Positions 42,112-47,689 are shown, counted from the stretch's first letter. The stretch: DNA of 64,000 bases from Dehalococcoidia bacterium (GCA_050185685.1 JBFWZE010000001.1:2421-66420); one strand, 5' to 3'. Notes: generated by a model from the sequence alone, not told the origin. Numbers and translations: made by a program.

Positions 42112-43716
42112 TTAGACCTCGATTGGCTTCAAAATGAGCGCCGTGTCAGGGACCACCTGCGAAGCACCGGCAATCGCCTGCTCGGTGCGGACCTTGCCCG
42201 GCACGACGACCGCTGCGAACACCGCAGCCAAACCGAGGAGCACCGCGCTGGCAATGAAGCCCGTCGTGAATGCGTCGACGAAGCTCGCCTGGGCCGCAGC
42301 CAGCAGAGTCGACTGCATGTCGGCGGGGAGCGATTGCGCGAGGACGGTCGCAACTCCGATGCCCTCGCTCGCCGGGTGCGCTACTTCGTGAGGCACGGTC
42401 GCGGCGAGTGCCGCCTCGACGTTGGCGCGATAGAGGGAGCTGACGAAGCTGCCTACTGCTGCGATACCGAGCGCGGACCCGAGCTCGCGGCTCACGTCAT
42501 TCAGGGCCGAACCGACACCGGCGTCGTCAACGGGGACGGCCGCCATCACCATGTCGGTCAGTGGCGCCATGCCGAGGCCGCCGGCGAGGCCGAACAGTGC
42601 GAGGTTGAGGATGATGCGAATCGTCGAGCTGTCAGCTTCGATCTGCGAGAGCAGCGCGACCGCAACCGCAACAACAGCAACCGCTGAACTGATAAGAAGC
42701 TTCGGTCCGACTCGGTGGACGACAGCGCCGGAGATCGGGGCGCCGATCATCATCGCGAATGCACAGGGAAGTCCCAGCAGGCCGGCCTCGAAGGCGGAGC
42801 GGCCCTGCACAAGCTGGTAGAACTGTGTCAGGAAGAAGAACACGACGGAGATGGCGAAGAAGACCGTGCCGACGATGACCACGCCGGCGGTGAAGTCACG
42901 TTCGCGGAAGAACTGCATCGGCAGCATTGGAGAAGACGCGCGGCGTTCGACGATGAAGAACAGGAGGCCTGCGACCGCCGACACTGCCAGGGATGCGAGG
43001 ACCTGGACGTCGGTCCAGCCGTGCTCGCCGCCGGCGATGATGCCGTAGACGAGAGTGCCGAGCGTAATGGTCCCGGTGATCGCGCCGGGGATGTCCAGGG
43101 CGCGGGGGCGCGGGTCGCGAGATTCCGGGACGATGGTGAGACCTGCGAGCGCGGCCAGGACGACCGGGACGTGCAGGAAGAAGATTGATGACCAGCCGGT
43201 GTGGTCGACGAGGTAGCCGCCGAAGGCCGGACCCATGCCCATCGCAAGGGCGCTGACGCCGGTCCAGATGCCGATGGCCTTGGCGCGCTCATCACGCGGG
43301 AAGACGTTGGTAATGATTGAAAGGGTTGCTGGCATGACGAGCGCGCCGCCGACACCTTGCAGGGCACGGAAGCCGATGAGCTGCTCTGCGCTCGTCGCGA
43401 GGCCTGCGCCAACAGACGCAGCGCCAAAGATGACCATGCCGGCAGTCAGCCAGCGCCGCCGGCCAAAGATGTCACCGATCGTCCCGCCTACCAGCAGGAG
43501 GCCGGCAAGCATCAGGACGTAGCCGTCGACGATCCACTGCATCTCGCCGGTGGACGCGCGCAGGTCGCGTGCCATTGACGGCAGCGCCGTGTTCACAATC
43601 GTGTTGTCGAGCATCAGCATGAAGATGCTGAGCGACATGACTGCGAGGATGGCCCAGCGGCGCGGGTGGCCGCTGGACTCCTCGAACTGCTCAAGGACAT
43701 TGTTCGTGGTCTTCAT
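42112..43716 (-). CDS. DHA2-family (EmrB/QacA-like, 14-TMS) MFS efflux transporter
   Basis: 534 aa. MLMLDNTIVNTALP and GDIFGRRR motifs of drug:H+ antiporter-2. 40-nt gap to the upstream Cys-rich gene. Confidence 0.85.
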   Translation of the reverse strand: MKTTNNVLEQFEESSGHPRRWAILAVMSLSIFMLMLDNTIVNTALPSMARDLRASTGEMQWIVDGYVLMLAGLLLVGGTIGDIFGRRRWLTAGMVIFGAASVGAGLATSAEQLIGFRALQGVGGALVMPATLSIITNVFPRDERAKAIGIWTGVSALAMGMGPAFGGYLVDHTGWSSIFFLHVPVVLAALAGLTIVPESRDPRPRALDIPGAITGTITLGTLVYGIIAGGEHGWTDVQVLASLAVSAVAGLLFFIVERRASSPMLPMQFFRERDFTAGVVIVGTVFFAISVVFFFLTQFYQLVQGRSAFEAGLLGLPCAFAMMIGAPISGAVVHRVGPKLLISSAVAVVAVAVALLSQIEADSSTIRIILNLALFGLAGGLGMAPLTDMVMAAVPVDDAGVGSALNDVSRELGSALGIAAVGSFVSSLYRANVEAALAATVPHEVAHPASEGIGVATVLAQSLPADMQSTLLAAAQASFVDAFTTGFIASAVLLGLAAVFAAVVVPGKVRTEQAIAGASQVVPDTALILKPIEV

Positions 43717-43756: not shown

Positions 43757-44149
43757 CTAGGCGTGAGTCACGGCCATGCCGGCGCAGGTGCAAGACGCCT
43801 GCTCACACCCGCAAGCGCTGCAGGTGTTGACGCCCGCGCAGGAGCACTTCACGCACTCGCAGACGCCGGCCGATGCCGCGCAGGTGCAGGTTTCGCCCGA
43901 CGCGCACGAGCACTCGCCGAGGTGGCAGGAAGCGCCGCAGAAGCAGGGGTCGCAGGCGCATCCGCCGAGCGAGTCGCAGTCGCAGGCTTCGTTCGATGAG
44001 CAGATGCAGGCGGCGCTGGTTGCGACGACGCCGCAAGAGCAGTCAGTACAGCCGCAGGTCGTGCAGTCGCACTGCTCGGTGCAGGAGCACTCGTTGCAGA
44101 TGCAGACGGCGTCGATCCGGTTCGGGAGGGTCCTGGCGATGGTGTTCAT
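43757..44149 (-). CDS. Cysteine-rich protein (130 aa, 32 Cys, about 15 CxC motifs), metallothionein-like
   Basis: AAGGAG ribosome-binding site 9 nt before the ATG at 44149. MNTIARTLPNRIDAVCICNECSCTEQCDCTTCGCTDCSC...CSACGCEQASCTCAGMAVTHA. GC-rich TGC codons match host usage. Sits between the GNAT and the MFS genes on the same strand. Confidence 0.6.
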   Translation of the reverse strand: MNTIARTLPNRIDAVCICNECSCTEQCDCTTCGCTDCSCGVVATSAACICSSNEACDCDSLGGCACDPCFCGASCHLGECSCASGETCTCAASAGVCECVKCSCAGVNTCSACGCEQASCTCAGMAVTHA

Positions 44150-44219
44150 TTCGAGGTTCTCCTTGCTTTCTTGCTGATGTGCTGGGTGGATTTCGATGGA
44201 CGTCACTTGAGGTGTCTCC

Positions 44220-44864
44220 TTAACGGGCCGGCACGATGGCGCAGGCGCAGCCACCGGATGCTGTCTGAGGCCGCTCGCAGCAGCAGCCGTCGCAGCCCCA
44301 GCAGGGGTCGAGGTCGCTGTCCGCAAGCCGGATGCGGAAGACCTGGCTTGCCACTTCGGTGCGCTCCTGGTCTTCAAAGGGAGCGAGGGCCGACCTGCCG
44401 CTCTCGTCGAAGGACAGCTCAGCCACCGGCACGAAGCCGGCGCGCTCGATGCCGATCCCGGAGGGAAGGTTCTCGGGGGCGAAGAGGATCCAGACCCTTG
44501 TTGCCGGAGGGCATTCGCGGCGGATGATCTCGGCCAGGAGCTGCGGGTAGATCCCGCGGCCACGAAAGCCAGGCAGCGTCGCGAAGTCCCACAGGTAGCG
44601 GTGACCGGCAGGCAGCTGGACTTCGAGGTCCAGCTCGCCGATCGAGGCGTTTCGCGTCGCCACCCAGCCATAGCCGGCCGGCTTGCCTTCCAGCATCGCG
44701 AGGTACGGCCGGTGTCCGTCCCGCCTCCGCCGCGTCACTTCGTCAATTGAGAGGTTGGCGATGCGGGCCAGCAGACCGTCATCGGCGGCCGCTTCGACCG
44801 TCAGGCCGGGCTGCAGCGCCAGGTGAGGAAGTCCGTCTTCGTACCACCAGGTTGCGAGTGCCAT
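44220..44864 (-). CDS. GNAT-family N-acyltransferase with a Cys-rich C-terminal tail
   Basis: GGAAGGAGA ribosome-binding site. GNAT motif A LPGFRGRGIYPQLL. The C-terminus DPCWGCDGCCCERPQTASGGCACAIVPAR has 8 Cys in 30 residues. Confidence 0.65.
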   Translation of the reverse strand: MALATWWYEDGLPHLALQPGLTVEAAADDGLLARIANLSIDEVTRRRRDGHRPYLAMLEGKPAGYGWVATRNASIGELDLEVQLPAGHRYLWDFATLPGFRGRGIYPQLLAEIIRRECPPATRVWILFAPENLPSGIGIERAGFVPVAELSFDESGRSALAPFEDQERTEVASQVFRIRLADSDLDPCWGCDGCCCERPQTASGGCACAIVPAR

Positions 44865-45031
44865 CTACTTGTCTCCTTCCTGTTTGTTTCTGCAGTCAGG
44901 CTAGGAGTGGCACGAGAGGGTGAAATCACACCGATGGGTGAAGCCGAAGGGTGATTGCGAGCGATTGAACGGGTGGGTACACACCCGGGGTTGGTAGACT
45001 TGCGATCGTTCTGAGGGAGGAACCCCGATCC

Positions 45032-47689
45032 ATGGTCGAGTCGGCGCCGGCTCCGCTACTCGAGACCAAGCTGCGGCCGCCGCACGCGCGAGAGTCCGTT
45101 CTGGCTCGACCTCGCCTCGTCGAATTGACTCAGCGCGTCCTCGAAGTGCCGCTCACCCTGGCGGCGGCGCCCGCCGGGTTCGGAAAGACGACGCTTCTTC
45201 TCGATTGGTACAACCGGCTACATCCGCATGCACGGGCCTGGGTGTCACTCGACGAGACCGATAACGATGCGGACCAGCTGGCGCTGTATCTGCGTACCGC
45301 TGTGGGCCGGACCCTGAAAGACGCGGTGCTGGAAGGCGAGCAGTTCTCGCTCGAGGCGACCGTCGCGGAGTTCGTGAACCGAACGGCGGCCAGCAATGAG
45401 CCGCTCATCCTCTTTCTCGACGACTATCACCTCATCGAATCCCCTCGGGCTCACGCGGCGCTAACCTTCCTCCTCGAGCATCAGCCGCCGGCGTTCCACC
45501 TCGTCCTGGGCACCCGTCATGACCCGCCGCTGCCCCTGGCTCGTCTGCGCGCTCGCGGGCGTCTGCTCGAGGTACGTGCCGAGGACTTGAGGTTCACGTC
45601 CGAGGAAGCGGACGGCATGCTCCAGGAACTGATCCCTTTCGACCTCTCCAGCGAGCAGCTGCGGGCACTCGAAGAGAAGACGGAGGGGTGGGCGGCAGCG
45701 CTGCAGCTCGCGGCGCTTTCACTGCAACGTTCGACGAACGCCGGCGCCTTCATCGAGGCGTTCAGCGGCTCGAATCGATTCGTCTTCGACTACCTGGCCG
45801 AGGAGGTCTTTCAGCGGCAGGACGCGGAGACGCAGACCTTCCTTCAGCAAACGGCGATCCTCGAGCGCCTCACCGGTGGCCTCTGTGACGCCGTCACCGG
45901 GTTGCCACGGGGCGACGTACGGCTGTCGGATCTGCTCAGGGCGAATCTCTTCCTGAATGCCCTCGGGGACGAAGAGCGCTGGTATCGCTACCATCACCTC
46001 TTTCGCGATTTCCTTCGCCGCACGCTTGAACAGCGCATGCCCGATGGGGTCCGTGGCCTGCACCGGCGCGCTTCCGAGTGGTTCTCTGCGAACGGCTTGC
46101 TGGACGAGGCGGTGGCACACGCGGTTGAGTCGGGCGATCAGGCCCTCGCCCTCACGCTGATCGAGCGGGGAATGCCTGCAGTGACGATGCGCGGCGACTT
46201 CCTTACGCCTGCTTTCGAGCGATGGATGGGGAGCTTGCCGCGGGACGAGGTCTATCGGCGGCCTCGCCTTGCGTTACCTCGGGCGCTAGCCTCTGCCCTG
46301 AGAGGCAGAGTCACAGAGGCGGAGCAAGTCGTAGACCGCGTCTCGAGGGTGGTCCTGGGGCAGGAGGCGCTGCCGCATGAAGCCGATGAAGACGAGCGCC
46401 GTGCGTTCTTCGGAATGCTGCAGACGGCAAGGGTCTACATCGCACGGTTCCGCGGCCGCCCGGACGAAGCGCTGGAGATCGCGGACGCGACGATGACCGA
46501 ACTCCCGCCTGAGGAGCCCGCACGCGCCTGGCTCGGCATGGTGCGACAGATGGTGCTGTTCGAGAAGTGGGCGCCGGACCTCGACGTGACGCTGGAGCAG
46601 GCGGCGCGAGTGTGTTTCAGCCAGGGGCACCTCGGGGGCGCAGTTGGCCTCCTCAATTTCGAGTTTTATCGCCTCGTCCTCTGCGGGCGGCTCGTCGACG
46701 CCGGAGACCACCTTCGCCGGTCCTTCCAGCGTGCGTATGACCATCATGCTCTGCCCGTCGTAGGCATGCTTCACGGAGCCCAGTCTGAGCTTCACTACGA
46801 GCGCGGTGAGCTGGACGACGCGGAAGAGGAAGCAAACCGCTGCCTTTCTTTTGGCGCGCCCGGTTTCACTCCCGGTGTCTTCACTCCGCCGGAGCTGACG
46901 CTCGCTCGTCTGCAGATCGCGGATGGCAGGAGCGACGAAGCGCGGGAATCGCTGCGGCGGCTCGAGGACCGGGCGCGACCGGTTGAAACGGTGCAGGGCC
47001 TGCGCTCCTACCCCGCCTTCATCGCCGACGTCCGCCTTCGGCTCGGTGACCTCGAAGGTGCGATGCGCTGGGCTGAGGCGTGCGGCGTCGGTCCCGACAC
47101 GCAACCCGATTTCGAAAACGAGTTCGTCTGTCTTGTCTACGCGCGTGTGCTCCAGGCTTCGGGCCGCGGCAGTGAGGTACTGTCGCTCCTCGCCCGCCTT
47201 CGGGAGGCGGCGAGCGATGCCGGGCGCCAGGGCCGCGTCGTGGACGCGTGGCTCATCGAGGCATGCATCCACTGGCGCAACGGTGACCAGCGAACGGCGA
47301 TGAGCACCCTAAACCGAGTGCTTCCCGTTGTGGAGCGTGAAAGGTATGTGAGGACACTCCTCGACCTCGGCCCGCCGATGCTGACGATGCTACATGAGGC
47401 CGCCGTCGGCGGCCCGCACGCCGCCTACGCATCGCAGCTGCTTTCGCTTGCCGGTGAAGAGGTATCGCCGTCAGCGCGTGCTCGGACAGCGAGCCCGGAC
47501 GATCTCAGCGAACGTGAGCAGGACGTGATCCGCCTGCTGGCGAAGGGCTACGCGAACCGCGAGATCGCCGACGAGCTTGTAGTCTCGCTTGATACGGTGA
47601 AGACGCACCTTCGCAATGCCTACATGAAGCTTGGCGTTCACAGCCGCACCCAGGCGATCACCAGGGCCCAGGAGCGCAAGCTGATCTAG
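45032..47689 (+). CDS. LAL-family (MalT-like) large ATP-binding LuxR regulator (paralog 2)
   Basis: P-loop [11 protein letters not shown], and a C-terminal Lux[47 protein letters not shown] ribosome-binding site. Confidence 0.85.

Follow-up and report, generated by a model that had tools for sequence, protein, structure and literature searches.

We analysed a 64,000-nt stretch of DNA from a Dehalococcoidia bacterium (GCA_050185685.1, JBFWZE010000001.1:2421-66420), hereafter the window, around a gene that encodes a GNAT acyltransferase with a short cysteine-containing C-terminal extension (the tail). The locus comprises the following features, with coordinates counted from the first nucleotide of the window.

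44220-44864, minus strand: GNAT acyltransferase gene, 214 amino acids, first gene of a predicted operon (open reading frame [ORF] translation, Pfam, AlphaFold2 fold and homologues).
44223-44306, minus strand: C-terminal Cys motif of the GNAT, P187-R214, PCWGC-DGCCC-(9)-CAC-AIVPAR, seven Cys (conservation in homologues).
43757-44149, minus strand: metallothionein-like Cys-rich gene, 130 amino acids with 32 Cys (translation, homologues in the same slot and frame tests).
42112-43716, minus strand: DHA2 (EmrB/QacA-type) MFS efflux permease gene, 534 amino acids, third gene of the predicted operon (Pfam MFS_1 and TIGR00711).
44923-44955, minus strand: operator-like element, ATCACCC-N7-TCACCC-N4-GTGTGATT, with two direct and one inverted half-site (conserved intergenic block).
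45032-47689, plus strand: MalT/LAL-type regulator gene (AAA_16 + TPR_MalT + GerE), 885 amino acids, divergent from the GNAT gene (Pfam and NCBIfam).

Judged from its sequence, the window GNAT is a member of an uncharacterised, mainly chloroflexotal (Chloroflexota) family of GNAT acyltransferases whose hallmark is a short C-terminal Cys extension. The gene has a Shine-Dalgarno sequence, GGAAGGAGA, 5' of its ATG, and residues 46-115 of the product match Pfam Acetyltransf_1 (PF00583) with 27.4 bits (cut-off, 20.7); no NCBIfam model matches the protein. Motif A (LPGFRGRGIYPQLL, residues 97-110) reads R101-G-R-G104-I-Y106: the R-x-x-G is present, and an invariant Tyr occupies the final position of the consensus for acetyl-CoA pyrophosphate binding, R/Q-x-x-G-x-G/A, in place of G/A. 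AlphaFold2 predicted a GNAT alpha/beta fold with a predicted local distance difference test score (pLDDT) of 85.6 when given 28 sequences, and of 88.7, with a predicted template modelling score of 0.84, when given 113. A Foldseek search of the PDB returned 148 matches at E ≤ 1e-3, the best 50 of which are all GNATs; the top matches (VipF, 4ius, 3frm, AAC(6') and DpA) align with template modelling (TM) scores of ∼0.5 and <20% identity. The initial annotation of this gene had drawn an analogy to MshD-type thiol acetylation, which our data do not specifically support: MshD ranks 42nd, as just one among numerous generic matches to the GNAT fold. Residues 1-7 (44844-44864), MALATWW, are near-invariant family-wide and predicted to form a beta-strand; such conservation at the extreme N-terminus is unusual.

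A homologue search of 5.8 billion proteins gave 696 matches, the best 120 of which are 47-100% identical to the window GNAT, mostly over at least 90% of the query. An identical protein is on record as "GNAT family N-acetyltransferase [Dehalococcoidia bacterium]". The last 27 residues of the window protein, PCWGCDGCCCERPQTASGGCACAIVPAR, place Cys at positions 188, 191, 194, 195, 196, 206, and 208. The initial annotation had counted eight Cys in the tail, but the eighth, C118, sits in the core; the CCC triplet to which it drew attention is present but not conserved, being found only in the window protein and P0002, while the closest relative, P0003 (81% identity), has CRC. All 113 aligned sequences have C188, W189, C191, C206, and C208, and nearly all have C196; the motif is also seen in the alignment of 28. 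A CWxC followed by a later CxC occurs in 113 of the best 120 homologues; by total Cys count, 36 of these 120 have five in the tail, 61 have six, and 19 have seven. The family consensus is P-C-W-x-C ... C ... C-x-C-A, with five conserved Cys and five to seven in all.

The same picture emerged from 80 loci extracted from GTDB species genomes, nearly all of them Chloroflexota (Dehalococcoidia, Anaerolineae, Caldilineae, Roseiflexaceae, and Thermomicrobia). About 74 of the 77 complete loci encode the tail, the only exceptions being truncated contigs or broken ORFs, and the motif falls into several subtypes, such as CWRCVDQVVCTCQRDPESCSCAVEIR and CWHCGG-x14-CWPP-x11-CTCA. Across these loci the CxxC and CxC pairs are fixed, and the loop between them runs from ∼9 to ∼30 residues of free sequence. 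Beyond the Chloroflexota, plasmid 2 of the cultured gemmatimonadotal species Gemmatirosa kalamazoonensis (Gemmatimonadota) encodes a 43.5%-identical homologue with a CWRC...C...CRC tail. In two GTDB loci, L010 (8001-9311) and L069 (8001-9158), the GNAT frame extends far beyond the tail, to 436 and 385 amino acids, which suggests stop-codon loss, fusion, or an assembly error.

These data dispose of a frame artefact or frameshift as the source of the tail: it is read in the frame of the core, its synonymous-codon score is normal (0.445, versus 0.394 ± 0.235 for window genes), and it is conserved in homologues, which might instead have uniformly lacked it. The initial annotation was therefore right that a GNAT here carries a C-terminal Cys tail, and right that such tails are atypical of GNATs in general, yet in this particular family the tail is the rule. 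No Pfam, NCBIfam, or PDB entry covers it, and our literature search turned up no account of a GNAT tailed in this way.

The family-wide partner of the GNAT is a MalT/LAL-type regulator, not the Cys-rich protein. Among the 61 GTDB loci with at least 5 kb of upstream sequence, to which we restricted this count, tblastn found a full-length MalT-like relative in 47. The window regulator matches TPR_MalT (E, 8e-40), GerE (4e-19), and, weakly, AAA_16, with WHD_MalT recognised in orthologues; its score against the NCBIfam MalT equivalog, 400 bits, is below the cut-off of 537. In the close clade the regulator gene is divergent from the GNAT gene at a distance of 150-190 bp and is also flanked by genes for a 536-amino-acid MFS protein and an ABC-2 exporter; elsewhere, it is codirectional and lies 0.2-6 kb upstream. 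Twelve aligned GNAT-regulator intergenic regions from the close clade are variable save for one block, (A/T)TCACCC-N6-7-TCACCC-N4-G(G/T)GTGAT, and its core pattern, TCACCCNNNNGKKTGA, occurs once in the 64-kb window versus 0.03 times expected by chance. An extra copy of TCACCC lies just downstream of the element, at 44919-44924.

As the initial annotation had indicated, a Cys-rich protein is encoded directly downstream of the GNAT: its ORF begins 70 nt away on the same strand, with AAGGAG 9 nt 5' of the ATG. The product is 24.6% Cys, with 16 CxC and 6 CxxC spacings, and contains one Phe, no Tyr or Trp, and two His. An in-frame GTG (44204-44206, minus strand) lies 19 codons 5' of this ATG and has its own AGGAGA overlapping the GNAT stop codon; we prefer the ATG because homologues begin at the equivalent position, with MN(T/I)I. 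These homologues come from two Logan contigs. In L088, whose GNAT is 70% identical to that of the window, the regulator gene adjoins a GNAT gene that is followed by genes for a 205-amino-acid protein with 43 Cys and a DHA2 MFS protein; in L092 (GNAT 73% identical), the GNAT gene is followed by genes for a 137-amino-acid protein with 29 Cys and an MFS protein. BLASTP aligned the window protein to that of L088 with an E value of 2e-11, and all three begin with MN(T/I)I and contain the block EACxC[SD]xLGGC[AT]CDPC[LF]CGASC. The L088 gene (5606-6223) contains an internal duplication of a C-x-C...GGC-x-C-D/A-P-C-L-C-GA block. On the P0006 contig, a 130-amino-acid gene in the same slot is called on the opposite strand and is probably the shadow of a fourth family member.

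The same problem of strand assignment affects the window itself, where GenBank annotates not the Cys-rich gene but an overlapping ORF.

43776-44177, plus strand: Gln-rich antisense shadow ORF, GenBank hypothetical protein MGE0685142.1, judged not to be a real gene.

The shadow ORF is likewise the annotated one in MGE3984069.1 and MGE0057560.1, and PGAP called the plus strand in GCA_050179895.1; in a 15-billion-protein collection, the exact Cys-rich sequences are absent and the shadow protein is present. If the Gln-rich ORF were the real gene, the GNAT would have no Cys-rich partner. In favour of this alternative are the PGAP call and the fact that the two frames share third codon positions (TGC being the antisense of CAG), because of which G+C content at third positions cannot choose between the strands. 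TGN codons do discriminate: the three Cys-rich genes contain 103 TGY, 1 TGG, and no TGA, which argues for the Cys frame, since a coding Gln frame would give about half TGG by the third-position usage of the window. Synonymous-codon scores agree: the Cys frame reaches 0.50 and its shadow 0.31, against averages of 0.39 for real genes and 0.15 for shadow frames. In addition, all three genes keep the Cys frame open between conserved ends, whereas in L088 the shadow frame is broken by an internal stop codon; the Cys ATG has its Shine-Dalgarno sequence; the Cys-rich gene runs in the same direction as the genes on either side of it, from which it is separated by 40-89 nt; and gene callers picked the Cys strand in both L088 and L092. 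A comparison with L006 (GCA_050179895.1, a 13.7-kb contig of a Dehalococcoidia metagenome-assembled genome), which is 99.7-99.8% identical to the window (24 substitutions in 11.8 kb), placed two substitutions in the Cys-rich gene (43810 and 43848), each altering an amino acid in either frame. On this codon and reading-frame evidence, the Cys frame is the real gene and GenBank is on the wrong strand; a Gln-rich gene in its place appears very improbable.

In composition, the Cys-rich protein fits the definition of a metallothionein. We compared the family with the usual description of metallothioneins (∼15-33% Cys arranged as CxC, CxxC, or CC; few or no aromatic residues; <10 kDa): Cys counts are 32/130, 29/137, and 43/205 (21-25%), CxC and CxxC spacings abound, and aromatic residues are few, but at 130-205 amino acids (∼13-21 kDa) the proteins exceed the low mass. 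Few bacterial metallothioneins are known, and these are ∼50-80 amino acids long. Profile searches were of little help with such sequences. Pfam and NCBIfam, including the metallothionein families, gave no match even at E ≤ 10, and phmmer and hmmsearch gave none in 5.8 billion plus 1.84 billion proteins, the PDB, Pfam, and NCBIfam; these negatives are uninformative because the alignment-based search missed the family's own two homologues. The masked tblastn null is uninformative as well, because a Cys-rich ORF from Gemmatirosa (see below) failed to match its own record. Metagenome scans with back-translated peptides or the pattern GGNTGYRCNTGYGMNCCNTGYYTNTGYGGNGC found no Cys-rich relatives, and our literature search found nothing on the family. 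Family members are known from three contigs only (window, L088, and L092), and HMMER and masked BLAST are blind to the family.

How are the tail and the Cys-rich protein related? The initial annotation noted that one echoes the other, which is so in composition but does not extend to homology: a Smith-Waterman alignment of the tail with the Cys-rich protein scores 41, versus a mean of 42.4 for shuffled tails, and 581 of 1,000 shuffled tails score at least as well. Their distributions also differ. No comparable Cys-rich ORF was found in the 80 GTDB loci, nor in L001, L003, L004, L090, L094, or L095; the Cys-rich neighbour is confined to the window's small subclade, one clade of the GNAT tree. 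In a neighbour-joining tree of GNAT cores, the window protein, P0002, P0004, P0006, and P0005 form one clade; the P0005 locus is rearranged and lacks the Cys-rich gene. We also considered a rule tying the number of tail Cys to the presence of the neighbour, and rejected it on finding seven-Cys tails without such a neighbour in P0005, P0013, and P0020. This distribution across genomes shows the tail to predate the Cys-rich neighbour, to occur without it, and not to have evolved for that partner, contrary to the suggestion that the tail exists to serve it. The simplest history is that the Cys-rich gene was acquired once, in the window's subclade.

A case outside that subclade is nevertheless suggestive. 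On Gemmatirosa plasmid 2 (NZ_CP007130.1), a 55-amino-acid ORF with 15 Cys (MTSSTTSCACTSCHATTCACG...CCCGSACGCDVCACPPNCGCAV; L093, 9825-9992, plus strand) and a GAGGGA upstream lies 2.2 kb downstream of the tailed GNAT homologue. Genes for a flavin monooxygenase and an AraC regulator lie between the two, and a gene for a di-haem cytochrome c peroxidase comes next; the copy of the record that we searched has no annotation for the ORF.

The GNAT, Cys-rich, and MFS genes lie on one strand with gaps of 70 and 40 nt, and we infer a three-gene operon from this spacing, the shared strand, and the same order in L088 and L092. Terminator prediction gave none on the operon strand, and a sigma-70 scan gave no promoter. 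The MFS protein exceeds the TIGR00711 cut-off (260.2 versus 230.2 bits); orthologues in L088 and L092 share 82-91% identity with it, and those in the rest of the close clade 55-62%. In L001, L003, and L004 (59-63%-identity relatives), a DHA2 MFS orthologue lies behind the regulator gene, whereas its place in the window's subclade is after the GNAT and Cys-rich genes, so that a rearrangement coincides with gain of the Cys-rich gene.

Clustering of ORFs across 81 loci identified the following recurrent neighbours of the GNAT gene.

Alpha/beta hydrolase: 41 loci, directly upstream.
Zinc-type alcohol dehydrogenase/quinone oxidoreductase: 39 loci, directly upstream.
Beta-lactamase-family hydrolase: 33 loci, directly downstream.
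DJ-1/PfpI: 24 loci, nearby.
ABC ATPase: 16 loci, nearby.
Di-haem cytochrome c peroxidase: 12 loci, nearby.
YtkA-like: 12 loci, nearby.
DUF4386: 9 loci, nearby.

Exporters of the ABC and MFS types are likewise recurrent in the family's loci. From this gene context, the theme of the locus would be an inducible xenobiotic or stress module.

We propose that the tail is probably a metal-binding Cys knuckle, with zinc the likeliest metal. The CxxC and CxC pairs would chelate one metal ion across a loop of variable length and sequence, and the likeliest site would be a Zn(Cys)4 knuckle, structural in role and possibly redox-labile, by which the extension is anchored to the enzyme. Fixed Cys pairs with a variable intervening loop are a feature of zinc knuckles and ribbons; our proposal follows from the match of the two invariant Cys pairs and variable loop to this Cys4 architecture. 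Of the metal-sensing or metal-binding appendage put forward in the initial annotation, the binding role is the part that the conserved, paired Cys fit; on the other side are the absence of a zinc-domain profile match and the low AlphaFold2 confidence in the tail. The Cys might instead hold an iron-sulfur cluster: at least five are conserved, and the CxxCxxCxC of the window's clade resembles the ferredoxin-type CxxCxxC. That spacing is not conserved in other clades (CWRCVDQVVCTC or CWxC-x14-CW), only the outer two pairs are invariant, and we regard a cluster as improbable. A further alternative is that the tail acts as a thiol-based zinc/redox or soft-metal sensor that switches acyltransferase activity, with the operon answering oxidative, electrophile, or metal stress. 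The model here is Hsp33, whose C-terminal zinc centre (CxC...CxxC) releases zinc on oxidation and whose motif composition is echoed by the CxxC and CxC pairs. Neighbours linked to redox or electrophile chemistry recur (DJ-1/PfpI, quinone oxidoreductase, and di-haem cytochrome c peroxidase), a metallothionein-like gene has been recruited in one subclade, and the conserved C196, with the extra Cys of some clades, exceeds the needs of one structural site. However, the tail has no homology to Hsp33 or a known redox-switch domain (Pfam and NCBIfam gave no match), and such heterogeneous neighbours suit general xenobiotic metabolism equally well; we think a sensor rather unlikely, if worth keeping in mind.

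Two other explanations give the Cys-rich protein the leading part. In one, the tail docks it, or the GNAT acylates it at its N-terminus, a Lys, or a thiol. The order GNAT, Cys-rich protein, MFS protein is kept in three lineages (window, L088, and L092) with short gaps; the MN(T/I)I N-terminus is conserved; the GNATs of the metallothionein-linked clade have seven-Cys tails, though the closest relative, P0003, has six; and Gemmatirosa supplies a second GNAT homologue near a small Cys-rich ORF. Against this, the tail extends across the family, yet the neighbour is missing from every one of the GTDB loci and from the six other loci named above, seven-Cys tails occur without it, and the similarity between the two is compositional only. 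Docking or acylation therefore seems quite unlikely; the GNAT and the Cys-rich protein may still be functionally linked in this one subclade, through co-regulation, metal or thiol buffering, or perhaps an enzyme-substrate relationship. In the other explanation, the Cys-rich protein is the precursor of a ribosomally synthesised and post-translationally modified peptide (RiPP), with the GNAT as tailoring enzyme and the MFS protein as exporter. Accessory genes typical of RiPP clusters include those for a GNAT, an exporter, and a LuxR-type regulator, all three of which are present here, and the Cys-rich protein begins with a Cys-free, leader-like stretch. But there is no maturase nearby (radical SAM, YcaO, LanB/C/M, or protease), the proteins are long and one is internally duplicated, and the core of GNAT, regulator, and MFS genes occurs without the Cys-rich gene; we give a RiPP precursor scarcely any credence.

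Several points weigh against a zinc-type knuckle and the functional picture built around it. AlphaFold2 places tail residues 194-205 at pLDDT <50 even with 113 sequences; the second pair, CxC, is less canonical than CxxC; and neither the fifth conserved Cys (C196) nor the extra Cys is accounted for by a single Cys4 site. The GNAT core has no close likeness to any characterised enzyme, given the low TM scores and identities noted above, and a profile of the family found no sequence relative in the PDB; because of this, it is gene neighbourhood alone that carries the detoxification reading. Co-transcription of the three genes rests on their spacing. Finally, the Gemmatirosa case hints that the link between GNATs and Cys-rich proteins may be less incidental than we propose.

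Taken together, the sequence data lead us to a joint picture that we believe about as much as we doubt: a zinc-type Cys knuckle on an uncharacterised GNAT, which would be the primary target of the LAL regulator and would head an acylate-and-export operon to which a metallothionein-like protein was added in one subclade. The GNAT gene would be the first of three, followed by those for the metallothionein-like protein and the DHA2 MFS exporter, and the operon would be transcribed divergently from the MalT/LAL-type regulator gene via the conserved TCACCC-N4-GKGTGA operator. The module would be an inducible unit for stress response or detoxification on the principle of "acylate and export", with the GNAT-regulator pair as its ancient core. 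The metallothionein-like gene would have joined it a single time, in the common ancestor of the window's subclade, and its product may buffer metals or thiols or, less probably, be a substrate of the GNAT. We consider unlikely a stronger version in which the Cys5-7 module makes the GNAT family metal- or redox-sensitive and the Cys-rich proteins, as a new family of large bacterial metallothioneins, are its partner or substrate in an LAL-controlled metal- or thiol-stress operon in one clade; were it true, the Cys-rich ORF near the Gemmatirosa GNAT would be no coincidence.

These results define a large GNAT family, of at least 696 proteins, by a conserved, undescribed Cys motif and a conserved regulator and operator, and make its function testable; their practical impact is moderate. 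The metallothionein-like family was missed twice, by gene callers that take its antisense shadow and by composition-corrected searches that miss its own members; annotation of GC-rich genomes may systematically overlook other Cys-rich genes of this sort.

The components of the locus can be set beside the known systems closest to them. The GNAT shares its fold with the superfamily (AAC(6'), the polyamine acetyltransferase DpA, VipF, and 4ius/3frm/3ec4; Foldseek probability, 1.0), has an acetyl-CoA motif A that ends in Tyr in place of G/A, and, unlike these enzymes, has the C-terminal Cys motif and the near-invariant MALATWW start. The regulator has the domain order of LAL/MalT regulators (AAA_16, WHD_MalT, TPR_MalT, GerE), divergence from its presumed target, and a repeat-type operator, whose sequence (TCACCC-N4-GGGTGA) is unlike the Escherichia coli MalT box. 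The Cys-rich family resembles metallothioneins (SmtA/BmtA, MymT, and the eukaryotic proteins) in its CxC/CxxC dominance, near-absence of aromatic residues, and modular duplication, the L088 block duplication recalling the growth of multi-domain metallothioneins; it differs from the bacterial proteins in its larger size, its own conserved block, and its lack of a match to a metallothionein Pfam family. As for the tail, it is unlike described zinc-binding domains in having no sequence or profile similarity to them (Pfam and NCBIfam), a CxC second pair, and a fifth conserved Cys. Nonetheless, it mirrors the Hsp33 redox-switch centre in composition, resembles Cys4 zinc knuckles and ribbons in having, at the end of the protein, two close Cys pairs with a variable loop between them, and opens with a first pair, CWxCG, that resembles the CPxCG knuckle.

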